Shown here one piece after another: positions 751 through 28,447 of a DNA stretch of 32,357 bases. Position numbers and translations under genes: made by a program. The notes under the pieces were generated by a model that worked only from the letters and a program-made list of their open reading frames with translations, searched no databases and was not told where the DNA came from. Position 1 is the stretch's first letter. Each line of letters opens with the position of its first letter. The DNA is from a virus (taxonomy: Duplodnaviria > Heunggongvirae > Uroviricota > Caudoviricetes): the IMG/VR virus record IMGVR_UViG_2675903665_000002, one strand, 5' to 3'.

Positions 751-981
751 TCATGAGTAGAAGAAGTATGCCAGTTCTGCTTTTGAGCGCAGCCATTGTC
801 TTGTTTTACAGGCTTTAAAAAGCCCATTCATCAATACTTTACCTGGCATTTTGCGCTTACCTGTTAAGTGAGTCTGGATATAGTGACTCGTCGTTCCGGC
901 TTCCTGTGCGAAGGCTTCACGCTCATCCGGAGTAAGTGCAAGCCAGTGCTTTTTGAAATCGAAATGTCCGTTATCGCTCAT
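751..981 (-). CDS. Cro-like small HTH DNA-binding regulator
   Basis: 76 aa with a helix-turn-helix-like segment (EAFAQEAGTTSHYIQTHLTGKR). Divergent from the repressor-like gene across an operator cluster. Confidence 0.6.
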   Translation of the reverse strand: MSDNGHFDFKKHWLALTPDEREAFAQEAGTTSHYIQTHLTGKRKMPGKVLMNGLFKACKTRQWLRSKAELAYFFYS

Positions 982-1135: not shown

Positions 1136-1720
1136 ATGAAAAGTATCCAGGACGTCCGCAGGCAAAATCTCAACGACTTGATCGACCGTGAATTCAATGG
1201 TGTTCAGACGCGGATGGCAGAAAAACTTGGAACTCAGGCAAATCTGGTAAACCGCTGGGCTCTTGGCAAGAAGGTTATCGGCGACCAGGTTGCGCGAAAA
1301 ATTGAAGCTGCCGCCAATAAACCACGTAACTGGCTTGATATCGATCGCTCGCTTTCTCAGGAAGGTTTTCAGCCTGTCGGCCCAAGCGACATTGGTCAGC
1401 TGGCGGCTCACAACCTGGAACGCTGGATGAGCGAAAGCCGCGACCTTTCAACTCAGGGAAAACTTCACCGCGCATCCGGCGTCGCCCAGGTGACAATCAG
1501 CCGCCTGTTAAACAATGAGGTCAGTGTTTCCATTTCCACCCTGGAGAATGTTGCATCAGCATTCGGGCGTCACGGCTATGAATTACTGATTCACCCGCAC
1601 GACCCTGCGACCATCAACTATGACCGCTCGCGCTACGCATTGTTACCCGAAACCGAGAAAGCAAAGATCGAAAGTTACATTGAATTTGTCATCAACCAGA
1701 ACGAAAAAAACAAACAATAA
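1136..1720 (+). CDS. Phage repressor-like protein with two tandem XRE-type HTH domains; no LexA-like S24 peptidase domain recognised
   Basis: 194 aa. HTH-like segments near residues 20-60 and 110-150. No obvious SD upstream of the ATG, so possibly leaderless like lambda cI. Followed by an intrinsic terminator. Confidence 0.65.
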   Translation: MKSIQDVRRQNLNDLIDREFNGVQTRMAEKLGTQANLVNRWALGKKVIGDQVARKIEAAANKPRNWLDIDRSLSQEGFQPVGPSDIGQLAAHNLERWMSESRDLSTQGKLHRASGVAQVTISRLLNNEVSVSISTLENVASAFGRHGYELLIHPHDPATINYDRSRYALLPETEKAKIESYIEFVINQNEKNKQ

Positions 1721-5374: not shown

Positions 5375-5619
5375 AGCAGATTATGGTTGCACACAACGGC
5401 GTCAGGTTTGAAGTCGTCATGGTTTTGACTAAGTACCGCAATGATGAGGTATTGCAGAGAAAAGAAACTGTAACTTACCGTTATAAACACCGAAGTTCAG
5501 CTGTTAGAAGATTACGGAAGATTACGGAAGAGCTAAAAAATGATCCTCATCGTGTTATTGAGGTAAAAGGCAACCCATATAAAATCACAACTTCAGTGGA
5601 GCTAAGACATATGCAATAA
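5371..5619 (+). CDS. Small hypothetical protein translationally coupled to the methyltransferase
   Basis: ATG overlaps the methyltransferase stop (ATGA). 82 aa. Contains a perfect tandem 10-nt duplication (ATTACGGAAG x2 at 5511-5530). Confidence 0.45.
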   Translation: MKQIMVAHNGVRFEVVMVLTKYRNDEVLQRKETVTYRYKHRSSAVRRLRKITEELKNDPHRVIEVKGNPYKITTSVELRHMQ

Positions 5620-5943
5620 AATCACGCCTGACGAATCGCGATTATCTCGCTATTGGTATTGCAGAGATTGCTGGACTCAGTGGCGCATGATTTGACAATG
5701 CCGCCAGAGCTATCGCATACTGACCGCACTAGAACTTCAAAGCGGTCACCCGCACCCGATAGCTTTGCGGCTTTTTTATGCCTGCAATTTGGCATAGTCA
5801 CATCCGTACAAAGGTCGGGTGGAGAGGCGTAATACAATACCCAAAAGGGGAATATGCCCGGAGCGTCTTTGAAGGCTCTAGTTGACACCCGATCACCAGC
5901 TACTAACTGGTGATTGCTAACTAAAACTTCAAAGGAGGTCATC

Positions 5944-6594
5944 ATGACCAGTCAACTCATCCCCGTATTCAACGGCACTATATCCAACGAAACCGCTCTT
6001 CTCGTTAATGCCCGTGATTTACACACTTTCCTCGATGTGGGTAAGCGATTTGCTTCGTGGATTGTCGAACGAATTGCTGAATATGGTTTCGTTGAAAATC
6101 AAGACTTTATGATTATTTCCCAAGTTCGGGAAAAAATAGGCAGAGGCCGTCCTGCAAAAGACTACCACCTAACCCTCGATACAGCCAAAGAGCTGGCGAT
6201 GGTCGAGCGTAACGAAAAAGGTCGTCAGGTACGACGCTACTTCATTGAATGCGAGAAACGTTTAAGACAACAAGAAACAAAAGTGGAGAAGGTCTTGTCA
6301 GGCTTCATGCCCGCCATTATGGAGGCGATCAAGCTGGAAGACAAAAAAGAATACAGCGCCCCACTGAAGCCCGGCTACCGCAGCCTGATTCACTCGCCGT
6401 CTGGTGTTCTTGGCCTGACGGAGAACTCACTGCTGATGAATCTGCTGAACCAGTTACAGGAAGACGGGCACGACGTATCGGGCGCGGCGGCGGAGCTGAC
6501 CACCATGTTCTGCTACATCGTTGGTGTGAGCAAATGCCTGCGTGATATCCAGACGCACGCGGAGTACATCAACGACAAGGCAGGGTTCTTCTGA
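5944..6594 (+). CDS. Phage antirepressor (Bro-N/AntA-like N-terminal domain)
   Basis: Perfect AGGAGG SD 7 nt upstream of ATG 5944. N-terminal region resembles the AntA/Bro-N antirepressor fold (...ARDLHTFLDVGKRFASWIVERIAEYGFVENQDF...). Confidence 0.7.
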   Translation: MTSQLIPVFNGTISNETALLVNARDLHTFLDVGKRFASWIVERIAEYGFVENQDFMIISQVREKIGRGRPAKDYHLTLDTAKELAMVERNEKGRQVRRYFIECEKRLRQQETKVEKVLSGFMPAIMEAIKLEDKKEYSAPLKPGYRSLIHSPSGVLGLTENSLLMNLLNQLQEDGHDVSGAAAELTTMFCYIVGVSKCLRDIQTHAEYINDKAGFF

Positions 6595-6640
6595 CAGAAC
6601 GGCGGCACAGGGATGTGCCTTTAAATAATTCTGTACAGAT

Positions 6641-6682
6641 TGCAGACTGTGGGTGAATAGCGTACTATTACCTTAAAGGTAA
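6641..6682 (+). promoter_or_regulatory. Promoter-like element with perfect operator upstream of the AT-rich two-gene operon
   Basis: TTGCAG at 6641-6646, 16-nt spacer, TACTAT at 6663-6668, then TTACCttaaaGGTAA at 6668-6682. Confidence 0.55.
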
Positions 6683-6724
6683 ACCTGTTTTTATTTTATA
6701 CCTGTAACTTACCGGAGATTAAAG

Positions 6725-7051
6725 ATGACAAAACTTGGATTCGTGATGAGAGGTCCGGTAAGAAGCGGAACTCATGCAAAGCGTAGCAAGAGTCGTATTT
6801 TTACTGGTAAGGTTGTAGCACGTAAATCAGCTATTGGCTCGTTCAATAGTGAAAATGCGGCATTGCGCCATATTTTTATCAGCACAAAGCCAAGAGCATC
6901 CGCTGATGTGCATACAATGTCTATTCCTATCACAAAGAATATAAAGCGGATAAAAAAGCTCTCATCTGCAGAATCAAAAGAGATATCTTTCCGCCAGCTT
7001 AACTCATTAGAAACGCATATGAAGGAAGAGGAATTCGATGTTTTTGAGTGA
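6725..7051 (+). CDS. Hypothetical small basic protein (108 aa), first gene of an AT-rich accessory pair
   Basis: GGAG SD 8 nt upstream of the ATG. AT-rich relative to flanking phage genes, with several AGA and ATA codons. Stop overlaps the start of the next gene. Confidence 0.6.
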   Translation: MTKLGFVMRGPVRSGTHAKRSKSRIFTGKVVARKSAIGSFNSENAALRHIFISTKPRASADVHTMSIPITKNIKRIKKLSSAESKEISFRQLNSLETHMKEEEFDVFE

Positions 7052-7550
7052 GTATAGCGGGAAGGTTATACCTACTGGTGAGTTTAAAACTGATGACTTT
7101 CTGATTTCGCTAAAAGATGCTTTTAAACAACACTGGCGTCATGGTCATCATCCTGATCTGGGAAAAGATACTCTTTTTGAAAGACCAGAGGAAGTATTAG
7201 GCTTCCATCTCAGAAAGGTTCATGTCAATATTGGTGAATATGCATCATATTCATACTCATGTACTGAACAGTGTTGGGATGAGTGGTCATATGGATTGAT
7301 TGATGAACAAGGAAATTACAGGCCAAAACCAACCAGTAACGCATATCTCATATATGCAGTCAATGAAATAAGAGATGCAGCCTTACTAGCTTATTGGGAC
7401 CCGCCCGCACACACCAAAGCTAACGCAAAAGTTTGGATGGATTCCGTATTGAATTTCACAAAATTATTTCATGAACGAACGAATACAGCTCCACTTAGTA
7501 GAAATGTTTATCCGTGGGATTATTCGTACAAATCCAAAAAGCCTGCATAG
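7038..7550 (+). CDS. Hypothetical protein (170 aa), second gene of the AT-rich accessory pair
   Basis: ATG 7038 with GAGG SD; overlaps the upstream gene by 14 nt. No family recognised. Confidence 0.6.
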   Translation: MFLSEYSGKVIPTGEFKTDDFLISLKDAFKQHWRHGHHPDLGKDTLFERPEEVLGFHLRKVHVNIGEYASYSYSCTEQCWDEWSYGLIDEQGNYRPKPTSNAYLIYAVNEIRDAALLAYWDPPAHTKANAKVWMDSVLNFTKLFHERTNTAPLSRNVYPWDYSYKSKKPA

Positions 7551-7631
7551 TAGTTTTTTATGGACGAAACAAAAGTCAGTGCTACACTCATTGACGCCAC
7601 ATTGAGGTGGTTTATAGATGGAAATTTCACA

Positions 7632-7793
7632 ATGAAAAAAGCATTTGCTGCACTGTTCGTTTTGTTGTCTCTGGTAGCTTCAACTCAGGCCTTTGCCGGT
7701 CGTTGTCAGCACGACAGCGACACTGCTGCTGACGGCTCCCGCTGCGGTGGGCGTTCTGCGGATTCCCGCCCGGGTGGCGGTGGCATTCGTTAA
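7632..7793 (+). CDS. Small secreted Gly-rich protein (53 aa) with N-terminal signal peptide
   Basis: MKKAFAALFVLLSLVASTQAFA signal-like N-terminus. ORF-track start at 7560 is probably too far upstream. Weak RBS. Confidence 0.4.
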   Translation: MKKAFAALFVLLSLVASTQAFAGRCQHDSDTAADGSRCGGRSADSRPGGGGIR

Positions 7794-7816: not shown

Positions 7817-7832
7817 GTGACATGTCACACTA
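7817..7832. repeat. 16-mer GTGACATGTCACACTA, copy 1 (palindromic core TGTGACATGTCACA)
   Basis: Identical 16-mer recurs at 27852-27867. Both copies sit at a gene stop next to a - strand terminator, at the two boundaries of the structural operon. Confidence 0.6.
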
Positions 7833-8390
7833 CATTGATATATGATTCATAAAGTAGCTTAAAGATTTACTTCCCAGAAAAGAAATTTCTTTTCCTGGAT
7901 ATGTCGCAATAATTGAGCATGACTTATCCCCGTTAGAGGTAACAAATCCTGAATAACCTACTTGTTCTTTACCATTTTGTTGCTTGGCTAAAAAGTAGAG
8001 GTAGCTTATCTTTTTGCCCTCTGGGTAAAACTCTGCCAAACCAGTATCGGTGATTGAATATTTTATTCTCCCGCCTTGAGTAACGTTTTCCATCTCAAGT
8101 TTAGCTATGTCTTTTCTGTTGTATTCAGCATTGATTTTCCTTTCGAAATCAATGTTGTTTTCAAATGAGTAGGAAGCAACAGTCTGAATAGATGGGAACA
8201 CGTTTATCTGGATGCCTCCACAGTCGGCACAGGTATAAAGGTATGAATCAGATGGAATCCCCATAAAAGAAAACTGAGTTACCTTAAATTTATCGCTATC
8301 TCCAAAGTATTGAAGTTCGCATTTAACATTTTGCCCTGCAAAAGAAAATGCAGACATCAATATTGAAACAAAAAATATAATTGCCTTCAT
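7830..8390 (-). CDS. Secreted or lipoprotein-like accessory protein (186 aa), AT-rich
   Basis: N-terminal signal peptide MKAIIFFVSILMSAFSFAGQ. Last gene of the - strand operon. Composition differs from the neighbouring structural genes. Confidence 0.6.
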   Translation of the reverse strand: MKAIIFFVSILMSAFSFAGQNVKCELQYFGDSDKFKVTQFSFMGIPSDSYLYTCADCGGIQINVFPSIQTVASYSFENNIDFERKINAEYNRKDIAKLEMENVTQGGRIKYSITDTGLAEFYPEGKKISYLYFLAKQQNGKEQVGYSGFVTSNGDKSCSIIATYPGKEISFLGSKSLSYFMNHISM

Positions 8391-20187: not shown

Positions 20188-20238
20188 CTTCTTTCTCCAT
20201 TAGTGGGTCTGTTACGACCCACAGGTTAATAACAGGCG

Positions 20239-21231
20239 TTACACCACGCGGGCTTCTGTTTCCAGAAGCGCATCAGTTTCACGGATTGGTACACCACGGA
20301 ATGAAGTCCACCACTCGCCTTCTGTCTCTTTTACGCTGATCGCCAGAGATGTTTTCTCCAGAGATTGCAGATCAAGAGCCTGGCCTACAGTGCGGTTCAT
20401 GTAGAACACCGGGCGACCCATGCCACGATTTGGAATGCGATGCAGTGCTTTAACCATCAACTTCGCAATATTTGCGGCAGAGGAAGGTTCTGAAAGATTG
20501 CTGACATCGATGTTTGCAATGCGAACAACATAACGCCAGTCACGCAGAGCAAGTCCGTTGTCCCATTTGTAATGGGTACGGTAGCCTTCGTACTTGCCGC
20601 CATTAGCATCTTCCAGTGTCACCTGGCCTTTATCTTCCATCTGAATGCCAGCCTTCTGCCCTTTCGGGAAGATGCCATGCACTGTGTTTTCGCCCCACAC
20701 CACTAACCAGATTGAAGTGTTATCTGTACCCGTGCCACCAGCATCAATGATGTTCTGAGCATTACCCGCAGACAGGCTGGAATAGCGGGAGGACAGTCCC
20801 ATAAACTGCTGAGGGTTAACGCTGGAATCACCGTAAAACAGCGTCTGCGCCATCGCCTGATTCATCGCTTCAATAAATGCTCGGTCTTCAGACAGGCGGA
20901 ATTCGGCAGTATTACCGTTCAGATCAGCCAGAGACTTATCGACTTCAGCATAGGTTTCCAGCATGCCAATGGAATCAGTGACCTGCACCGTTGTTGATTT
21001 GCTCGGTTGTACGCCATAGTTCAGCAAACGCCAGGTAGCGGAAGGCAAACCAGAACGAATGGTGGTTCGGTGTCCGGTAGGAAGGTTTCCTTCAACAAAA
21101 GGCATATCCTGAAGGATTGGGTTGGTTTGACTGAGAAGCTCGATAATCTTATCGACTTTCCCGTTTGGATCGACGCGCTTACCCCAGTCAGCCAGCGTTA
21201 GCGCAGTTAAGCCTTTAACAGCCATTGTCAT
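20239..21231 (-). CDS. Major capsid protein
   Basis: 330 aa, directly downstream of an acidic scaffold-like gene and the portal gene; typical size for an HK97-fold coat protein. Confidence 0.75.
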   Translation of the reverse strand: MTMAVKGLTALTLADWGKRVDPNGKVDKIIELLSQTNPILQDMPFVEGNLPTGHRTTIRSGLPSATWRLLNYGVQPSKSTTVQVTDSIGMLETYAEVDKSLADLNGNTAEFRLSEDRAFIEAMNQAMAQTLFYGDSSVNPQQFMGLSSRYSSLSAGNAQNIIDAGGTGTDNTSIWLVVWGENTVHGIFPKGQKAGIQMEDKGQVTLEDANGGKYEGYRTHYKWDNGLALRDWRYVVRIANIDVSNLSEPSSAANIAKLMVKALHRIPNRGMGRPVFYMNRTVGQALDLQSLEKTSLAISVKETEGEWWTSFRGVPIRETDALLETEARVV

Positions 21232-21239
21232 TTCCTCTC

Positions 21240-21941
21240 TTATTTGCCATAGAGCACTTCGGCCGCACTACGCTGGCCTTCATTACCACCGGTGACCATG
21301 CCATCTTCAGACATCGCCTTTCCGATTTTCACGAACGTTTTGACCAGATCAGGGTGATTACCCAGCCCGGTGGTGTTCAGATATTCTTTGAGTTCAGGTG
21401 TCCCGAACTGGTCGAGCGCACGCTGTGCGGCGCTAAGGTTAGAAATCAACTTGTCGCCACCGATTTCTTTGTCAGCTTTTACATCCGCAGCCCACTGCTC
21501 GGTTGTTTTCTGCCAGGCTTCTGCCTGGCGCTGCTGAACACCTGCCAGAATCTTCGGATAAGCATCAACCAGCTTTTGCGCTTGCTCGTTGGTCAGGTTA
21601 AGTTCTCGCGCCACCGGCTCGAATTCCTTCAACGCTTCTGTATCCAGCTCTACGCCTTCGGCAGCCTGAAACTCGTACTTCTCCGGCGCACCATCCGGTT
21701 TATCGCCGTCCTTTTTTTCACCCTGCTTATCGCTTTCAGGCTTTTTGTCATCAGCAGGTTTATCGCCATCAGCAACAGGTTGCGGCTTATCACCTTCTTG
21801 TTGTGATGGATCACCAACTGGAGCAGGGTTATCACCTGCAGGCGCTGACGGTTCTGACGCAGCCGGAGCTGCTCCACCATCGACTGGTTGCTCATTGCAA
21901 AGACGGCGATACAGCAAACGCTCAAATAAATTCATGATCAC
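21240..21941 (-). CDS. Scaffolding protein
   Basis: 233 aa, highly acidic with a Pro/Asp/Lys-rich low-complexity N-terminal half; located between portal and capsid. Confidence 0.7.
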   Translation of the reverse strand: MIMNLFERLLYRRLCNEQPVDGGAAPAASEPSAPAGDNPAPVGDPSQQEGDKPQPVADGDKPADDKKPESDKQGEKKDGDKPDGAPEKYEFQAAEGVELDTEALKEFEPVARELNLTNEQAQKLVDAYPKILAGVQQRQAEAWQKTTEQWAADVKADKEIGGDKLISNLSAAQRALDQFGTPELKEYLNTTGLGNHPDLVKTFVKIGKAMSEDGMVTGGNEGQRSAAEVLYGK

Positions 21942-22234
21942 TCCTGTTCACTGGCCTCTTTGGCCATCTTCAAATACTGTTCAGGGCAATGCGCCATAAC
22001 GCGCTGAAACAGTTCCAGCGCCAGATTGCGTTGCCCCTCATTAAATGCCATTGCCATAGCGTCCATCGGTGAGATAGCGGAAAACACACGGCCTTTCTCC
22101 AGCACCGACCAGACAACGCGACGCCCCTGTTCACTGCTCATGACAAAGCGAATGTCATCAATTTCACGCTGTGCCATGTCACGTTGCTTACGGGCGTTTT
22201 CTTCTTTCAGTTGATCATCTTCGTAATCTGTCAT
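21938..22234 (-). CDS. Hypothetical small head-module protein (98 aa)
   Basis: Overlapping start/stop with both the portal and scaffold genes. Confidence 0.45.
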   Translation of the reverse strand: MTDYEDDQLKEENARKQRDMAQREIDDIRFVMSSEQGRRVVWSVLEKGRVFSAISPMDAMAMAFNEGQRNLALELFQRVMAHCPEQYLKMAKEASEQE

Positions 22235-23910
22235 TGTGATTGCCCACCCTGACCACTAACTGCATTCGCCATAGCTGACAAAACACTCGGATCCGAAGTT
22301 TTAGCTTCGCTTAGCGTCTTGGCACCCTGTGCCGCCGCCATCCCCATCGCCATCATTTGTTGCTGCTGTTGTTGCTGTGCCCGTTGCTGGCGAGCCTGCT
22401 CAACCTGTTCCTGCGGAACAATGACGGTTGGAGACACTCCGGACATATCAGCGAATGCATCGATCGCCTGATCAACGTTGAGTTTGTCGAGAGCTTCTGG
22501 TTTCGCTTGCGCAAGTTGACCAATGAAGTTAACCGTGGACGCCAGACTGGACAGGCCGATAGACTTCTGCGCCTGAGCCATGACGGAAATGTATTCGACC
22601 TTCAGGGGCATGCCTTCCATCGCGTCAGGCGGTGGCGGCAGCATGTTTTTGCGCACCATCATCGAGAAAGCGCGGTCAATGAGAGGATTAAGACATTCGT
22701 CGTTCAGACGCTCCAGAACCGGCCCCAACATCAGAAGTTTTTCTTCTTTCATTTCGATCACCGCTTCAACAGGCATCGAGCGGGTATTGATGTTCTGCAA
22801 CATCATGAACAGATCGACAAAGTAGGCGCTGTTAATGATTTGACGAGTGTCCTGAATGTCTGCCACCAAATCTGCTGTACTGGGGTTAACCAGATAAGCA
22901 GGCCTGAAGCCATCCTGACCAGTAATCTGATCGATATACGTGATGTCGCCAGGAAGAAGGGAGGCGCGCTGATTCTTGAGGGAAGTCGGAGCAACCATCG
23001 GCGGATTGGTGGCTTTATCAATCAACTGCGACTTGCGCTTCTGGAGAAGCTGCAATGCCTTAACAGGTCCAAGCGCCAGCATACCCGGGCATGATGATCC
23101 ATAAACATCTTCGCCGTTAACTTCCCAGCGCGGAGCCATAATTGGAAACTCATCGAATCCGGACTCACGCAACAACTTGTCGTTATCGCCACCAACCTCG
23201 TAATAAACCGATTTGAATGGCTTGTTCTTGCTATCCAGCTTCGATGTATCGCGGTCAATGTTCGGGTAAACCGAATGCATCACTTCGATCCACTTCTCGT
23301 AGGTGCCGCTTTCCCACATGCTTTTTACGGATTCGCTGACGTTATTTAGCCCGAACTCCTGAACAAGCTGACGAACAGTCATAGAGAACTTGCGAAAACA
23401 GGTGTCAACACTGCCACGAGGTGAGTTAGCCAGGTAGTAACTGCCTATCGGGAATGGCATTGTGCGAATGATGTCCTCGTCATCCTCCAGCACTGCCATT
23501 GCACCAGTGCTGTATGTGCCGAGGCTTCCGTATAACTGCGGAAGAGACTGGTAGAGATTCGACTTATTGAACATATCGTTCATGCGGTTCTGAACTGCCT
23601 CAAGCCACAACTTAACAGGGCCATAATCCATCATTTCAGGATCTGGCGTAGCCAGGCGAAACCACGGACGCGCGGGGCTTGTGATGCCTGACATCATGCC
23701 GCTGGCGAGAGTGCGCGCCGCCATAGTCCCGGTCGAATCAATAATGCGTGTATTGCGCCGATCGTTACGGTTGGCCTCAGAAGTCAGAAAGCGGGAACCA
23801 CGCGGGTTGATGTAATCACTCAACTCGCGCCAGTGCGGCTCGAACGACTGACGCTCGCTTTCAAGTTGTGCGAACTGTTTGTTCAATCGCTCTTTAGTTG
23901 TTTCCGCCAT
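22231..23910 (-). CDS. Portal (head-to-tail connector) protein
   Basis: 559 aa. N-terminal region resembles the podovirus head-to-tail connector family. Gln-rich C-terminal tail. Sits upstream of scaffold and capsid. Confidence 0.8.
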   Translation of the reverse strand: MAETTKERLNKQFAQLESERQSFEPHWRELSDYINPRGSRFLTSEANRNDRRNTRIIDSTGTMAARTLASGMMSGITSPARPWFRLATPDPEMMDYGPVKLWLEAVQNRMNDMFNKSNLYQSLPQLYGSLGTYSTGAMAVLEDDEDIIRTMPFPIGSYYLANSPRGSVDTCFRKFSMTVRQLVQEFGLNNVSESVKSMWESGTYEKWIEVMHSVYPNIDRDTSKLDSKNKPFKSVYYEVGGDNDKLLRESGFDEFPIMAPRWEVNGEDVYGSSCPGMLALGPVKALQLLQKRKSQLIDKATNPPMVAPTSLKNQRASLLPGDITYIDQITGQDGFRPAYLVNPSTADLVADIQDTRQIINSAYFVDLFMMLQNINTRSMPVEAVIEMKEEKLLMLGPVLERLNDECLNPLIDRAFSMMVRKNMLPPPPDAMEGMPLKVEYISVMAQAQKSIGLSSLASTVNFIGQLAQAKPEALDKLNVDQAIDAFADMSGVSPTVIVPQEQVEQARQQRAQQQQQQQMMAMGMAAAQGAKTLSEAKTSDPSVLSAMANAVSGQGGQSQ

Positions 23911-23924
23911 TTCAATGACTCCGG

Positions 23925-24131
23925 TTACTGACCAAGCAGCGTTTTACCGCTGGTATTAGCGGTTGATGTGTCGCCCTGAGAACCGGTAAGCAGCGTAGAA
24001 CTACGACCAGCAGCAGCGCGACGGCGACGTGTTTCTTCGTCGCGGGCATCAACAACGGCGGCATCCTGCTCCTGTGGTGCTGCCTGAACTTCTGGTGTTG
24101 CAGGCACTGATGGTGAGCTACCCATGCACAT
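23925..24131 (-). CDS. Small hypothetical protein (68 aa) upstream of the portal gene
   Basis: ATG at 24131 with GGAG SD 8 nt upstream. The alternative overlapping frame 23912..24151 looks less protein-like. Confidence 0.35.
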   Translation of the reverse strand: MCMGSSPSVPATPEVQAAPQEQDAAVVDARDEETRRRRAAAGRSSTLLTGSQGDTSTANTSGKTLLGQ

Positions 24132-24199
24132 ATCAATGACTCCGTACGCAATTAAATTATTACCAATTTAACCACATATGATTTATTTATCGTAGAAGG

Positions 24200-24236
24200 T
24201 TGACATTTAACGCGTGAATTATTACCTTTCGGGTAA
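24200..24236 (+). promoter_or_regulatory. Promoter (TTGACA at 24200-24205) with perfect operator for the tRNA transcription unit
   Basis: TTACCtttcgGGTAA at 24222-24236 positioned where a -10 element would be expected. Confidence 0.55.
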
Positions 24237-24558
24237 CCAAAGAGCTCATTCCGGTTACTAACCTGACTGGCTTGTCGTTAAATTAAACAGGTGGAGTGAG
24301 CTTTTATTTTGAGCAGTACGGCGTATGGCACATGCGCCGATAGCGGTCTGGATACGTTTAAGGGGCACCCTCCCTTGCTCGGGCAAACGAACCAGGTAGC
24401 CGGAATGTGCAAGTCGAGCGGTTTTATTCCGCGCACGGGGATTCACCATCCCGGCGATTCGGTGTGACGCCTCGGAAGAGACGAGGGTACAACGATGAGA
24501 GCATTTATGGAGCCGCGACAAAGTGTGGCGCCTTAACAGGCTAAGTGCTCTCAGCGTT

Positions 24559-24635
24559 GTGGCATTAGCTCAGTTGGACAGAGCAACCGCCTTCTAAGCG
24601 GTTGGTCGCAGGTTCGAATCCTGCATGCCACGCCA
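24559..24635 (+). tRNA. argU: tRNA-Arg (anticodon UCU), argU-like
   Basis: 77 nt. 7-bp acceptor stem GTGGCAT/ATGCCAC, D-arm GCTCAGTTGGACAGAGC, anticodon arm ACCGC-CTTCTAA-GCGGT (anticodon TCT), T-arm GCAGG-TTCGAAT-CCTGC, discriminator G plus CCA. Near-identical in arrangement to E. coli argU. Confidence 0.95.
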
Positions 24636-24678
24636 GAATCACGCCTAAGGACCGTGATGCCAGAAGTTCCAGGTGCTT

Positions 24679-24721
24679 GGCGGTGATGGTTTCCCTTGAA
24701 GGACTATCACCGCCCTTTTTA
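24679..24721 (+). terminator. Intrinsic terminator downstream of the tRNA
   Basis: GGCGGTGAT...ATCACCGCC stem followed by CTTTTTA. Confidence 0.65.
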
Positions 24722-24798
24722 CAGCAGGACGCCATTGCGATGACTTCATGCTGTAAACCCGTACAGCCACGGAAGGCATAACTCATTGCTTCCAGTTC

Positions 24799-24822
24799 GC
24801 CCGGTTCGCCGGGCATTTTTTT
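24799..24822 (+). terminator. Intrinsic terminator (GCCCGG-TTCG-CCGGGC plus T8)
   Basis: 6-bp GC stem with TTCG tetraloop followed by ATTTTTTT. Confidence 0.8.
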
Positions 24823-24838
24823 GCTTGATGACCGCAAA

Positions 24839-24857
24839 TTACCTTAAAGGTATAATC
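24839..24857 (+). promoter_or_regulatory. Near-consensus operator (TTACCttaaaGGTAT, 9/10) fused to TATAAT, directly upstream of the membrane-protein gene
   Basis: Same TTAAA spacer as the 6668 site. TATAAT at 24851-24856. Confidence 0.5.
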
Positions 24858-25676
24858 ATGAAAAACTTCAAGGTAATTAGCATGTTTGAATCGTTTAAAG
24901 AGCTGTTTTTATCTACTGCCAATACTGCCGTGAATCGAGCCAAAAACCCTGTGCTTGGTGCTTTTGTTATGTCCTGGTGCGCCTTCAACTGGAAATCAAT
25001 TCTTTATCTATTTTTTAGCAAATCAAACATAATAGATAAAATTTCATATATCTCAGATAACAGCACATGGAAAACTGTTATGTTTTATCCATGCTTATCT
25101 GTAATTGCTATCTGCTGCCTATTACCATGGGTAAACAATATCATTAACGTATGGCAAGCAAAGCCTCTTGATAATAATGACTCAATCGAAAATCACCTGA
25201 AGGCAAGAAAAATCCAGCGTGAAACCAGACTGCAGAGGTTATTGGCTAAAAAAGATGTTACATACGACAAAGTTAAGACTGGCGCGGAAAAAGACATCCA
25301 AGAGATGAAAGAAGAGATTATTCGATCAAAGAATAGTATGGGGGAATTGACTGCTGAGTTGAAAGCTAAAGATGACGAATTGAGATCCGCCAGTGCTCAG
25401 TTAGCAGCTCTAAATCATTCATTAAAAGAGATATCGGAAACTCTTGGAAGAATGAATGAGGCATATAAGACCCTCCAAAATGATTTCGACGAATACAAAC
25501 TCAAATACCCTGAAAAATCTCAAATAAAAAGTCTTGCACTTGGCAACGGCCAAACAATTAGCAACTTTTTGGAGCAACACAACTTATCCGGATTAAAATC
25601 TGGTAAGCCAGACGTTTTTAATAACTTTGGTGTTCTATCTGGATTATCAGGTTTCGAGGATAAAAATAAAGACTAA
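24858..25676 (+). CDS. Accessory membrane protein: two predicted TM helices followed by a long coiled-coil; AT-rich
   Basis: Hydrophobic segments VLGAFVMSWCAFNWKSILYLFF and VMFYPCLSVIAICCLLPWV, then a charged heptad-like region. Opposite strand to the structural genes. Start may be ATG 24882 if TATAAT is the -10. Confidence 0.6.
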   Translation: MKNFKVISMFESFKELFLSTANTAVNRAKNPVLGAFVMSWCAFNWKSILYLFFSKSNIIDKISYISDNSTWKTVMFYPCLSVIAICCLLPWVNNIINVWQAKPLDNNDSIENHLKARKIQRETRLQRLLAKKDVTYDKVKTGAEKDIQEMKEEIIRSKNSMGELTAELKAKDDELRSASAQLAALNHSLKEISETLGRMNEAYKTLQNDFDEYKLKYPEKSQIKSLALGNGQTISNFLEQHNLSGLKSGKPDVFNNFGVLSGLSGFEDKNKD

Positions 25677-27148
25677 GCATATGGATCGTACTCGGTAAGC
25701 GCCTTGCCTTGCTGGTTCTGCTGCCCGGGAAGTCGCAGGCGCTTCGACACCGGGAAAGCAAACGTCAGCAGCAGCGCATCGCCTTTACCCGGCGAACGCC
25801 CAAGTCGCTCTTTGATATCTTCCTTCGGTTCGATAACGATTTTACCGTCCACTCGAACTTTGTACTCTGCCGCCGACAGGTCGTCTGCAGTTTCCTGGTC
25901 ATCCAGCATGCCGCCCAGCCTCAGCCATGTCTTACATGAGTTGAACATCTCCCCACGCTTGTTGAGCATCTGCGGGTCAGTAGACGCGCCACCGAACGGA
26001 ACAAGTTGCCATGTACGACCCCAGCCGTCACCGATTGACTTCAGACCAGTTCCGTAACCGAAGTCGATGAACACTGCGTCAGCCTGGTACTGGTCTTCAA
26101 AGTCAGCGATACGCTTCGCCATAATCAGATCGTCAGTGGTCTTGTTGCCAGTCCACAGCACCTTACTGTGCAGCCCCTGCCGCAGGTATATCACAGCGTC
26201 ATCAACGCCTGAGTATGCCGGGTCAACGCCGATTATCACCGGAGCATGTGCAACCTGCGCAGCGGTGACCACCCGTTTCATTGCCTCGTCAGTAAGTCCG
26301 GTAGGGATAAACTGCAATTCAGATGCATCCGGGAATATGCCGCGCACACGGATTTTAACGAAGTCGCTGTCTTCCCCGTAGTCATCAACCCATTTCTGCA
26401 ACTGCTGTTTGTTGGTGCCTTCCACCGTCCGGCTGTCAATCTGCGCAGTTTTCCAGCGGTGTTTATATTTGCGGAAACATTCGCGGAAACGTCCGGTATT
26501 ACGCGTCGGGTTTCCGAACGCCACCCAGATAATCTCAGTGTCTTCGTCCGTTAGCGCACCCTCGGCAACTTCCCACACCAGATCCGCAATGTTCGACGCT
26601 TCATCGAATACCACGATGATGCGTTTGCGCTCGTTGTGTAGTCCGGCGAATGCCTCAGTGTTGTGCTCAGACCAGGGTATTGCGTCAGCTCGCCACCGCT
26701 TGTCGTGTCCAGGATCATTGCTGTACATCGCGGTAGCGGTACAGGTAAACCAGTCTTTCGTGATAGCAAGGTTCGACCACTTGATAATTTCCGGCCAGGT
26801 CTTCGTTCGTAGCTGGTTGTCGGTGTTGGCGGTCACCACAACCTTACAATCCTCGCAAGTGGACATGCCCCAGTTGATCAGCATTGAGATGAATGCGGAT
26901 TTACCAATACCGTGACCCGAAGCGCGTGCCAGCATAAGCGGCTGATAGCGCGTCTCTGGATTCTGCAGGTGATCACGTATCTCTCGGAACGCATCAGCCT
27001 GCCACTGACGTGGACCGGTGGCATGTGCCAGTTCAGTCCCATCTTCCCCCCACGGGAACGCATAGAGGGCATAGCCAAGCGGATCGTGAGTGAACCCTGC
27101 AATATCCTCGATTAACTGCTCTTCAGGAGATAACGCTGTATCTGTCAC
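25673..27148 (-). CDS. Terminase large subunit
   Basis: 491 aa. Walker A-like SGHGIGKS in the N-terminal ATPase region and an acidic nuclease-type C-terminal region. Start overlaps the terS stop. Confidence 0.85.
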   Translation of the reverse strand: MTDTALSPEEQLIEDIAGFTHDPLGYALYAFPWGEDGTELAHATGPRQWQADAFREIRDHLQNPETRYQPLMLARASGHGIGKSAFISMLINWGMSTCEDCKVVVTANTDNQLRTKTWPEIIKWSNLAITKDWFTCTATAMYSNDPGHDKRWRADAIPWSEHNTEAFAGLHNERKRIIVVFDEASNIADLVWEVAEGALTDEDTEIIWVAFGNPTRNTGRFRECFRKYKHRWKTAQIDSRTVEGTNKQQLQKWVDDYGEDSDFVKIRVRGIFPDASELQFIPTGLTDEAMKRVVTAAQVAHAPVIIGVDPAYSGVDDAVIYLRQGLHSKVLWTGNKTTDDLIMAKRIADFEDQYQADAVFIDFGYGTGLKSIGDGWGRTWQLVPFGGASTDPQMLNKRGEMFNSCKTWLRLGGMLDDQETADDLSAAEYKVRVDGKIVIEPKEDIKERLGRSPGKGDALLLTFAFPVSKRLRLPGQQNQQGKALTEYDPYA

Positions 27149-27741
27149 TGATTACCATCCTGACGTTCTTTGAGTCGCTTCCTGGCTGCTGCTATGCGAT
27201 CAGCAATTGTCACATTCACATTAACATCCAGACGTTCTTTGAATGCGTTGACATCAACATGCTTACCAATCAGCTCAAGGTTCTTCACCTTGTCAGGCCA
27301 TTTAATTTTTTTGAGGATTGTCTCTATTGAATCCTCGTTCATGTTCATGATGGTCGATGACAGATCAAAGCCACTAAGCGTAGTGCGCCAGATTTTCGGC
27401 CACTCACGGATTGGTTTAAGGCTCCCATCGTCGTTGAGGATGTCGATCACGTCCATCTGGTCGATCTCCACCAGGCGCATGAGAACGTAATCAGCACTGA
27501 CACGCATTCGTTTGTTGCGCTCCTCCATCAACTCGGCAATCCGTTTCTGAATGCGTTCATCGCGCATCATGACACTGGCTTTAACTGCCGCTGTATTTGG
27601 GGAGAATCCTGCGTTAATCGCAGCCTGAGTCTGGTTTTCAGGCGTTTTGATGTATGACTGGCAATAAGCCTCCTGCATTGCTGTGAGCGGCTTAAATTGC
27701 GTTGATTTGCGTTTATAGGTTTTAGGTTCAGCAGGCATCAT
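27145..27741 (-). CDS. Terminase small subunit
   Basis: N-terminal LTAMQEAYCQSYIKTPENQTQAAINAGFSPNTAAVKA... resembles the Terminase_2-type small subunit. Start set at ATG 27741 (MMPAEP..., GGTGG SD) rather than the TTG at 27819. Confidence 0.75.
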   Translation of the reverse strand: MMPAEPKTYKRKSTQFKPLTAMQEAYCQSYIKTPENQTQAAINAGFSPNTAAVKASVMMRDERIQKRIAELMEERNKRMRVSADYVLMRLVEIDQMDVIDILNDDGSLKPIREWPKIWRTTLSGFDLSSTIMNMNEDSIETILKKIKWPDKVKNLELIGKHVDVNAFKERLDVNVNVTIADRIAAARKRLKERQDGNQ

Positions 27742-27758
27742 AACCACCGTGGTAATTG

Positions 27759-27781
27759 TTACCGTTGTGGTAATAATACCA
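27759..27781 (-). promoter_or_regulatory. Candidate late promoter: extended -10 (TGgTATTAT on the - strand) overlapped by a perfect operator
   Basis: TTACCgttgtGGTAA at 27759-27773. The - strand reads catgGTATTATTACC, so the operator covers the predicted start site 18 nt upstream of terS. Confidence 0.5.
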
Positions 27782-27783
27782 TG

Positions 27784-27810
27784 CAAAATAAAGCCGCCAT
27801 AGTTGGCGGC
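27784..27810 (-). terminator. Intrinsic terminator on the - strand immediately upstream of the terS promoter region
   Basis: GCCGCC-atagtt-GGCGGC hairpin followed on the - strand by TTTATTTTG. Confidence 0.6.
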
Positions 27811-27851
27811 AGTATTCAAAATCCATCAAATTCATCATGCATAATCTACTC

Positions 27852-27867
27852 GTGACATGTCACACTA
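27852..27867. repeat. 16-mer GTGACATGTCACACTA, copy 2 (palindromic core GTGACATGTCAC)
   Basis: Identical to 7817-7832. Overlaps the stop codon of gene 27860..28201 in a different frame context from copy 1, so conservation is at DNA level. Confidence 0.6.
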
Positions 27868-28201
27868 TTAATTTCGTTTCATGCCAGCCTTTAGTCACCC
27901 AGCATTGCGAGTCACCATTACACGGGCATGAATTCACAGGAACTCTCTCGCCGCACTTACCGCAACGTTTTCTGCTGATCGATTTTATACGCCCGCGCAC
28001 GCGTGCATCATCCTGGCGGATCAGTAACGCTATATACTCACCAAATTCGTAAGGCGCACGCCCGGGGCGACGCGTGGCACAGTTACGCTCCAGCATTTCA
28101 ATTTCCTGAGCATCAAGCACAATCTCCAGCTTACGTACACCGGATTCAGCTTGTCTGGCTCTCTGAGCGGCTTTGCGCTCTGCTGCTGATTTAGCCATCA
28201 A
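27860..28201 (-). CDS. Hypothetical Cys-rich (zinc-binding) protein immediately upstream of the late operon; possible late-gene regulator
   Basis: 113 aa with a basic N-terminus and a C-terminal CGKCGER...CPCNGDSQC cluster. Position is analogous to late activator or antiterminator genes. Confidence 0.4.
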   Translation of the reverse strand: MMAKSAAERKAAQRARQAESGVRKLEIVLDAQEIEMLERNCATRRPGRAPYEFGEYIALLIRQDDARVRGRIKSISRKRCGKCGERVPVNSCPCNGDSQCWVTKGWHETKLIV

Positions 28202-28225
28202 TATTCACCTTTATTGCGAACATAC

Positions 28226-28447
28226 TTAGCTGTGTGTTGCCGATGTGCGGAGATTCTCTTCTATCAATTCCACGCATTCTGACCGACGAACAAATAATTC
28301 GTCTCCGTTATGAATTACGACATAGCCGTAAGCGGTTTTACGCATCACATCGAACTCATCCCATACGGAAATACCGCACTCTGCTAACGAGCAATCCAAA
28401 TAATCTTCCGGATGCTTGTCGGTGTTATTAATGATGCGAATCCTCAA
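28226..28447 (-). CDS. Hypothetical protein (73 aa)
   Basis: ORF in the nin-like region; no family recognised. Confidence 0.35.
   Translation of the reverse strand: MRIRIINNTDKHPEDYLDCSLAECGISVWDEFDVMRKTAYGYVVIHNGDELFVRRSECVELIEENLRTSATHS

Follow-up and report, generated by a model that had tools for sequence, protein, structure and literature searches.

The locus considered here raises a simple question: what do two small, overlapping and AT-rich genes do beside the antirepressor gene of a phage? The genes occupy positions 6,641 to 7,550 of a 32,357-nucleotide stretch of viral DNA (Caudoviricetes; IMG/VR record IMGVR_UViG_2675903665_000002), which is referred to, at its full length, as the window. 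By sequence comparison, the window is a phiV10/epsilon15-like (Uetakevirus-type) E. coli phage genome; HEMP4, vB_EcoP_ZX5, phiv142-3, TL-2011b and phiV10 match it with ~97-98% identity across most of its extent. An initial annotation recognized no family for either encoded protein (108 and 170 amino acids, aa) and suspected a toxin-antitoxin, abortive-infection or anti-defense pair. Our analyses point to a mobile cassette of the type II toxin-antitoxin kind, borne by prophages and consisting of a YafO-type toxin and a disordered partner under the control of a phage operator, and we assign this reading a probability of roughly 65%. Toxicity, RNA cleavage and neutralization are predictions for the pair, as is DNA binding for the phage repressor. 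The toxin-antitoxin-type appearance and the cargo position next to the antirepressor gene, ant, which had been pointed out earlier, are both supported by what follows.

Homology places the 170-aa protein in the YafO toxin family, as a divergent member of long form, so for this protein the earlier failure to recognize a family has been overturned; RefSeq already names the identical protein (WP_001555163.1) a "type II toxin-antitoxin system YafO family toxin". The Pfam YafO_toxin profile (PF13957) matched the protein at 20.1 bits (E 7e-4) over profile positions 7-100 of 101. The same profile matched 17 of 17 close relatives (E<0.01), and some of these exceed the gathering threshold, such as P0008, which had already been assigned to the family. 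When 1.84 billion cluster representatives were searched exhaustively with a profile, just 55 related clusters emerged, which indicates that the family is small. Forty-one full-length representatives were aligned to build a deep family profile, and 20 of them matched PF13957 (best E 6.8e-23). When this profile was compared with E. coli K-12 YafO by hhalign, residues 20-145 aligned with residues 13-128 of YafO at 95.4% probability (E 1.8e-8). The deeper profile was needed for this result: an earlier, shallow profile of 17 sequences gave a probability of just 8.5%, and BLASTP of the single toxin against YafO was not significant (E 0.55). Our locus-search patterns were derived from the 17-sequence alignment and reach close relatives only. 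In addition, phrog_1651 is common to E. coli YafO (E 1.8e-19) and the 170-aa protein (E 1.3e-52).

The conserved residues tell the same story. F29, G42, H62 and H125 are invariant in the family, and G36, D44, P50, W80, S100 and Y106 are nearly so. Residues F29, G36, G42-K43-D44, R59..H62, S100, Y106 and H125 align with the FGRD, RVAHIH, TND, LVY and PH motifs of YafO. Compared with YafO, the 170-aa protein possesses an extra insertion of ~25 aa (residues ~64-94) and a C-terminal tail, and the isoelectric point (pI) of both proteins is near neutral (7.0 for YafO). A sequence search of the PDB with the toxin family profile gave no match, and thus no relative with a solved structure. Two later papers (PMC7180214, PMC8546651) summarize the work of Zhang 2009, in which the YafO prototype is reported to cause growth arrest via mRNA cleavage and to associate with the 50S ribosomal subunit. 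Based on homology, we predict for the 170-aa protein the activity of an mRNA endoribonuclease, which may have a RelE/HigB-like fold and would arrest translation through mRNA cleavage. A distant long-form YafO-like branch (L042-L048, 27-34% identity) was also found. In its members, a conserved gene of 73 aa lies 72 nt upstream and a divergently oriented gene encodes 330 aa of unknown function, and in some of these contigs rexA-like or relE/HTH (helix-turn-helix) genes adjoin the YafO-like gene. This branch may be located in a defense or toxin-antitoxin island.

The 108-aa partner matches phrog_5933, a family of unknown function, with an E value of 1.8e-73. Its best Pfam match (E 0.051) fell short of the cut-off, and searches of NCBIfam, PADLOC and the PDB (a sequence search with the family profile) gave no significant match. 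The Phd/YefM family (PF02604) was absent from the protein in the Pfam scan, in which YafN scores 31.5 bits. No DNA-binding family or fold was detected by Pfam, NCBIfam or the PDB search or in the AF2 model, and tblastn against 50,697 GenBank phage records found no match. In the AF2 model the protein is disordered except for a C-terminal helix (residues 89-107), which is the sole confident element. The partner is strongly basic in all alleles (pI 10.2-10.8) and evolves faster than the toxin, with pairwise identities between alleles of 32-49% as opposed to 64-82%. Residues ~25-80 are hypervariable and cannot be aligned between alleles. The N-terminus (MTKLGFVMRG..KRRK.R) and the C-terminus (ELSFRMLNSLEDRMKEEEFDAFE; pattern E(I/L)SFR.L(N/S)SLE...KEE.FD.FE) are conserved, each with synonymous variation. 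The open reading frame (ORF) is open in every allele in spite of the unalignable middle, an outcome with a shuffle chance of 0.022 per allele, and the gene is therefore considered to be coding.

The conserved C-terminus of the partner also shows weak links to other proteins. When the partner was aligned locally by hhalign, its best matches to YafN (E 0.06) and to the 152-aa protein paired with a toxin of 44% identity (L039; E 0.05) both placed C-terminus on C-terminus. Shuffle p values for these resemblances are 0.015-0.11, and some alleles show no significance. The C-terminal tails of the 59-aa partner in TL-2011b and of the 73-aa L042-type partner showed no significant similarity to the 108-aa protein. 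An N-terminal ribbon-helix-helix in the L039-type partner was considered and dropped, as the Pfam RHH_8 match (E 0.03) lies in a different region.

The arrangement of the two genes is that of type II systems: two small co-directional genes, with the partner upstream, an overlapping junction and a Shine-Dalgarno sequence inside the upstream gene. The two ORFs share 14 nt (7038-7051) on the + strand, and their sizes, overlap and Shine-Dalgarno sequences are as initially annotated (Table 1). The Shine-Dalgarno sequence of the small gene lies within a leader, ACCGGAGAT.A.AG-ATG, which all alleles of the cassette keep. At 12 of 12 loci from Salmonella, Serratia and Enterobacter, which span three kinds of prophage context, a gene of 104-109 aa lies directly 5′ of the toxin gene with an identical 14-nt overlap. 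Translation of the toxin is thus predicted to be coupled to that of the small gene via the overlap. Taken together, the gene arrangement, the strict co-occurrence, the evolutionary pattern and the predicted structure suggest that the 108-aa protein is probably the cognate antitoxin. It would be translated first, coupled to the toxin, and would neutralize it via the conserved acidic and aromatic C-terminal helix.

The cassette differs in composition from its surroundings. The GC content is 0.40 for the small gene and 0.39 for the toxin gene but 0.49-0.58 for neighboring phage genes, and a sliding profile falls to 0.38-0.40 across 6600-7600. AGA accounts for 7 of the 16 Arg codons in the cassette and for 12 of 333 in eleven backbone genes; ATA accounts for 6 of 15 Ile codons and for 28 of 280 in the same backbone genes. 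The AT-richness and codon enrichment noted at the outset are therefore confirmed. A tRNA-Arg gene with anticodon UCU, which reads AGA, is located at window 24559-24635 (+), between the operator sites at 24222 and 24839, and phiV10 has this gene as well. Because AGA is enriched in the AT-rich cargo genes, the phage may supply the tRNA that they need.

The cassette also appears to have its own expression signals. The intrinsic terminator of ant forms a very stable RNA fold (6590-6640; -17.2 kcal/mol, z -4.08), as none of 200 shuffled sequences was equally stable, and its sequence is kept in TL-2011b and phiv142-3. Given this strong terminator, the cassette is regarded as a separate transcription unit. 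The initial annotation placed it behind a promoter and a perfect operator. The palindrome is indeed perfect, but the putative sigma-70 promoter is weak, matching the consensus at 7 of 12 positions, and it was not called in a consensus promoter scan. Nevertheless, its -35/-10 geometry is retained in all cassette alleles and in phages with other cassettes, and the -10 element abuts the palindrome. At the 3′ end, the terminator of other alleles consists of GCCCGC-ATAG-CGGGC and a run of T, its loop including the TAG stop codon, and this fold is a clean 7-bp GC stem in L005 but has only -8.3 kcal/mol (z -1.8) in the E. coli allele. Since the terminator is degraded in the E. coli allele, read-through from the toxin gene into the next gene is likely, and that gene may be co-transcribed with it. 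This conserved right-flank gene (window 7560-7793, +; start probably ATG 7635) encodes a Gly/Arg/Asp-rich, secreted or membrane-anchored peptide of ~53 aa that belongs to phrog_14503 ('membrane associated protein', moron category). Within the cassette, the Rfam scan found no RNA family, and the search for inverted repeats found one weak pair (7246-7293, 73% complementary) that we read as chance.

The palindrome is one member of a phage-wide family. Eight exact and five one-mismatch TTACC-N5-GGTAA sites are present in the window, as compared with 0.41 expected. Nearly all are intergenic and lie just 3′ of -10-like elements. The operator-like sites at 1018, 1049 and 1066 sit in the divergent region beside the phage repressor gene, two sites are located in front of the early recombination operon, and further operons have sites in front of them as well. 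In phiV10, which does not have the cassette, there are eight exact sites, and an identical promoter and palindrome stand in front of different cassettes in TL-2011b, phiv142-3 and L039. Operators are thus present, and the 108-aa protein absent, in phiV10, TL-2011b and phiv142-3. Because the family occurs in phages that possess neither the cassette nor its small protein, the palindrome is not private to the cassette. The proposal of operator control therefore stands insofar as an operator is located at the promoter, but control belonging to the pair itself does not. A similar operator consensus, ATTACC...GGTAAT, is reportedly given for epsilon15 in the 2007 genome paper by Kropinski.

Based on the distribution and geometry of these sites, we predict that transcription of the cassette is controlled from outside the pair. 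The palindrome covers the end of the -10 element and the expected start site, and since the -10 element abuts it in every allele, a bound protein would block initiation. The most plausible candidate is the window's phage repressor, a homologue of phiV10 gp40 and of ZX5 ORF21; the annotation of p40 in phiV10 describes it as repressor-like and gives it two HTH motifs. A Cro-like protein of 76 aa is also encoded in the window (751-981, -). Overexpression of ORF21, whose sequence is reported to be the same as that of phiV10 gp40, blocks the lytic cycle of ZX5, in a study that did not define the operators (PMC9782041). The gp40-type repressor probably binds the TTACC-N5-GGTAA sites, including the one at 6668. 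In that case expression of the cassette would be tied to the switch between lysogeny and lytic growth and not to autoregulation by the antitoxin.

The whole unit (promoter, operator, two genes and terminator) occupies a cargo slot next to ant in phiV10-like prophages, and copies of it are present in other prophage contexts. In order to survey the slot, 5,426 complete E. coli genomes were searched, and the inserts were read from a spread sample of those with flanks. The flanks were at least partly present in 448 of the 5,426 genomes, so that phiV10-like prophages occur in about 8% of them, and the cassette was found in 69 of the 448. The slot corresponds to window 6595-7635, between ant and the small secreted-protein gene (loci L001-L003, L039 and L049-L053). 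At least seven alternative inserts are seen there in E. coli prophages, behind a common promoter and operator. Three are YafO-like pairs, two are pairs of 55+146 aa and 62+110 aa, one is a single protein of 210 aa and one is a DUF4760 protein. The cassettes end in a common terminator with the stop codon in its loop, and the slot of phiV10 is almost empty. Variability of the locus among related phages, which had been suggested as a check, was thus observed. Across the GenBank phage records, tblastn of the toxin gave matches only in TL-2011b and EC.W1-9. The 146-aa protein of the phiv142-3 cassette is a doubtful candidate for another YafO-like toxin (hhalign E 0.042, 1.2% probability).

Table 1. 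Features of the cassette, its control region and its slot (window positions)
Feature	Position	Strand	Details
Small partner gene	6725..7051	+	ORF; 108 aa, pI 10.6
YafO-family toxin gene, long form	7038..7550	+	ORF; 170 aa, pI 6.4
Shine-Dalgarno GGAGA, small gene	6714-6718	+	6 nt before ATG 6725
Shine-Dalgarno GAGGA, toxin gene	7028-7032	+	5 nt before ATG 7038, within 3′ end of small gene
ant (antirepressor) gene	5914..6594		Upstream of cassette; AntA/Bro-N match
Intrinsic terminator of ant	6604..6630	+	Hairpin 6604-6619, GGCACA-GGGA-TGTGCC, then T/A-rich tail
Putative sigma-70 promoter	6640..6668	+	-35 TTGCAG 6640-6645, 17-nt spacer, -10 TACTAT 6663-6668
Operator palindrome TTACCTTAAAGGTAA	6668..6682	.	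Perfect 15-bp palindrome (7+1+7), exact match
TTACC-N5-GGTAA family sites	681, 1018, 1049, 1066, 1778, 1840, 6668, 24222, 24839, 27741, 27759, 31048, 31110		Site 1049 has two mismatches and is read from sequence context
Degenerate 3′ terminator of cassette	7536..7559	+	GCCTGCATAGTAG-TTTTTT, weak hairpin
Phage repressor gene	1136..1720	+	194 aa, HTH_3 E 1.2e-9; homologue of phiV10 gp40 and ZX5 ORF21
phiv142-3-type insert	slot		55 aa + 146 aa
TL-2011b-type insert	slot		59 aa + 181-aa YafO-like toxin, 33% identical
Second YafO-annotated insert type	slot		
Single-gene insert	slot		210-aa protein
Pair insert	slot		62 + 110 aa
DUF4760-protein insert	slot		

The cassette is not confined to this slot. 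In Enterobacter (L013-L015) and Salmonella (L006-L007), the same cassette, with its promoter and palindrome, was found at other prophage sites, either in lambdoid prophages, between the lysis genes and the gene for the antiterminator Q, or near an integrase/AlpA region with an upstream remnant of the ant 3′ end. These relocated copies show that the cassette has spread by recombination from phiV10-like phages.

Several observations weigh against the interpretation of the pair as a toxin-antitoxin-like cassette under phage control. The Pfam score of the toxin lies below the gathering threshold of 25 bits, and even for the prototype the mode of cleavage is uncertain, since Culviner et al. (PMC8546651) question whether YafO depends on the ribosome. 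A basic partner (pI 10.6) with a near-neutral toxin is the opposite of the textbook charge pattern, although YafO itself has a pI of 7.0. The C-terminal likeness of the partner to YafN is marginal, with shuffle p values of 0.03-0.11 in three alleles and no significance in a fourth. When the cassette moves into lambdoid prophages, the palindrome goes with it and is then the sole copy in 8.5 kb. Finally, a labile antitoxin would defeat its own purpose if its promoter were completely shut in lysogens, a difficulty that would arise during the establishment of lysogeny. For this reason, repression would have to be leaky, or the module would work during de-repression or by a non-classical logic.

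Among the other explanations, a role in lysogen defense is a tentative but serious possibility. According to this proposal the pair would be a toxin-antitoxin-based abortive-infection or superinfection-exclusion module, basally expressed in the lysogen and triggered when an incoming phage stops host transcription or degrades the partner, all of which is compatible with a toxin-antitoxin mechanism. AT-rich cargo in a variable slot with at least seven cassettes, among them three other YafO-like pairs and one DUF4760 protein, would be expected of such a module, as would its presence in lambdoid prophages between Q and the lysis genes, a classical moron site. An arms race would account for the hypervariability in the middle of the partner, and a distant member of the toxin family adjoins rexA and relE genes. 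However, a phage repressor operator over the start site predicts low expression in the lysogen, precisely when defense is needed. PADLOC models also match neither protein; in PADLOC-DB 2.0 there was no match for either of them, for related toxins, for the alternative cargo or for canonical YafO, the exception being a weak match of the L039-type partner to the SduA model (E 6.5e-4).

We consider it unlikely that the pair is an early lytic effector, that is, an RNase de-repressed upon induction or infection that degrades host or competitor mRNA in favor of the phage, with the basic, disordered protein serving as a modulator, chaperone or RNA/ribosome-binding cofactor and not as a simple antidote. 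This idea draws on the presence of the same operator at early promoters and in the immunity region, on the location of the cassette 3′ of an antirepressor gene that is itself necessarily silent in lysogens, and on the strongly basic character of the partner, whose KRRK.R patch is unlike typical acidic antitoxins. Yet the gene order, together with the constant overlap and a rapidly evolving partner upstream, is the usual signature of type II systems, and the cassette is dispensable, being missing from phiV10/ZX5-like phages and from most of the flank-bearing E. coli genomes. Furthermore, the toxins of other subfamilies have quite different upstream partners, as antitoxin swapping predicts (PMC3141249).

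Classical autoregulation, in which the N-terminus of the small protein (MTKLGFVMRG..KRRK.R) binds the palindrome at 6668-6682 and represses its own operon, while the likeness to phage operators reflects shared ancestry or hitch-hiking, seems improbable to us. In its favor, conservation within the protein peaks in the first 24 residues, which are very basic, and the palindrome stays with the cassette in every context. Because this holds even in the lambdoid prophages, with no other copy within 8.5 kb, binding by the small protein is conceivable. Nevertheless, TL-2011b, phiv142-3 and L039 have the same palindrome, identically placed, in front of unrelated cassettes, and phages without the small protein have it at 7-8 other promoters. 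For the small protein, no DNA-binding fold was predicted or detected. The lambdoid copy also shares ~60 nt 5′ of the palindrome with a phiV10-type copy, and other relocated copies keep a remnant of the ant 3′ end; on account of these flanks, we favor hitch-hiking of the palindrome over a functional tie to the small protein. Lastly, phage-encoded antitoxin mimics are known and the pair is cargo under early-type control, but it is very improbable that the small protein acts during infection as such a mimic against toxin-antitoxin or abortive-infection systems of the host, aided by the larger protein, given that the larger gene is itself a toxin homologue always kept with the small gene, and Pfam, NCBIfam, PHROG and PADLOC scans showed no similarity to known anti-defense proteins.

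The toxin-antitoxin-like cassette that we favor can be compared with known systems. The closest is yafN-yafO in the dinB operon of E. coli, in which the toxin is homologous and, as here, a gene in the antitoxin position lies directly upstream. The C-terminal tails of the two upstream proteins are weakly alike (..MKEEEFDVFE in the 108-aa partner and ..MTDDDFNDFKE in YafN). In contrast, the toxin has 170 aa here and 132 aa in YafO; YafN belongs to Phd/YefM, whereas the partner is basic, mostly disordered and hypervariable in its middle; and the promoter carries a phage operator in place of the SOS or antitoxin control of yafN-yafO. The cassette resides in a prophage cargo slot, whereas phages and plasmids yielded no YafO in the survey of Leplae et al. 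(2011; PMC3141249). In that study the YafO family had 25 members in 2,181 genomes, and YafO toxins were paired with Phd or with unclassified "guilt-by-association" antitoxins (PMC3141249), in keeping with the varied partners seen here. The ribosome-dependent mRNA endonuclease toxins RelE, HigB, YoeB and YafQ, of the RelE/ParE superfamily, also count among the nearest known systems.

Within the same slot, the TL-2011b (gp45/gp44) and EC.W1-9/L039-type cassettes have the same promoter, operator and kind of terminator. Their toxins are 33% (TL-2011b) and 44-47% (EC.W1-9/L039 type) identical to the 170-aa protein, and both are preceded by an overlapping small gene. The partners, however, are unrelated to the 108-aa protein: that of TL-2011b is a basic protein of 59 aa with a 26-nt overlap, and those of EC.W1-9/L039 have 139-152 aa with an 11-nt overlap, only the L039-type partner showing a weak C-terminal likeness.

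The three-component paaR2-paaA2-parE2 system of the E. coli O157 prophage CP-933P combines a small disordered antitoxin without a DNA-binding domain with a separate CI/Cro-type repressor. Its logic is analogous to that of the cassette, a likeness that implies no homology. The toxin belongs to the ParE family there and to the YafO family here. The regulator lies inside the operon in paaR2-paaA2-parE2, whereas here it is presumed to be the phage immunity repressor, ~5 kb away and with genome-wide sites.

Some features of the rest of the window deserve mention. In comparison with phiV10, the window is without a segment that contains p24, the tail fiber, O-acetyltransferase, holin/endolysin/spanins and integrase genes (phiV10 ~20230-28371), and both ends of the window fall ~750 nt apart in the phiV10 replication region. 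Because of these two observations, the window looks like a circularly permuted genome of ~32 kb without integration, lysis and tail-fiber genes. This reduced genome could be a deletion derivative or an assembly artefact. At window 5375-5940, the methylase gene is connected to ant by ~560 nt of unrelated sequence. An Rfam match to sRNA-Xcc1 (RF02221) falls in this novel junction sequence, directly 5′ of the ant start (5813-5902, +; 62.9 bits, gathering score 53; E 2.8e-9). A second AT-rich cargo gene is located at window 7830-8390 (-), with a GC content of 0.35 and AGA/AGG at 3 of 3 Arg codons. Its 186-aa product has an N-terminal segment resembling a signal peptide and matches phrog_11983 (unknown function) but no Pfam family; in E. 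coli PF9285 a Bro-N gene occupies its position.

In conclusion, to call the pair an undescribed system was too strong, since the toxin family is known and databases already annotate the toxin. What is new is the partner protein family and the proposed regulatory wiring, together with the long-form subfamily and the phage location. With this study, an unknown pair has become a hypothesis with named residues, namely K43/D44, R59, H62 and H125 of the toxin and the partner helix 85-108. The small YafO family gains a phage-borne long-form subfamily, with several unclassified partners. A bolder version, which we put forward as speculative and rather doubtful, is that the module has a new hypervariable, disordered antitoxin family and no autoregulation, is wired to the immunity repressor, and belongs to a slot that Uetakevirus prophages dedicate to the exchange of repressor-controlled toxin cassettes. 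If this were true, stable lysogens would express the module not at all or only by leakage, de-repression or infection would turn it on, and it could enforce lytic commitment, kill cells that abort induction or exclude co-infecting phages. If confirmed, control by an immunity operator, which is unusual for toxin-antitoxin modules, would link expression of the toxin to the lysis-lysogeny switch, and the compact exchange slot of phiV10-like prophages could yield further small toxin or defense cassettes.

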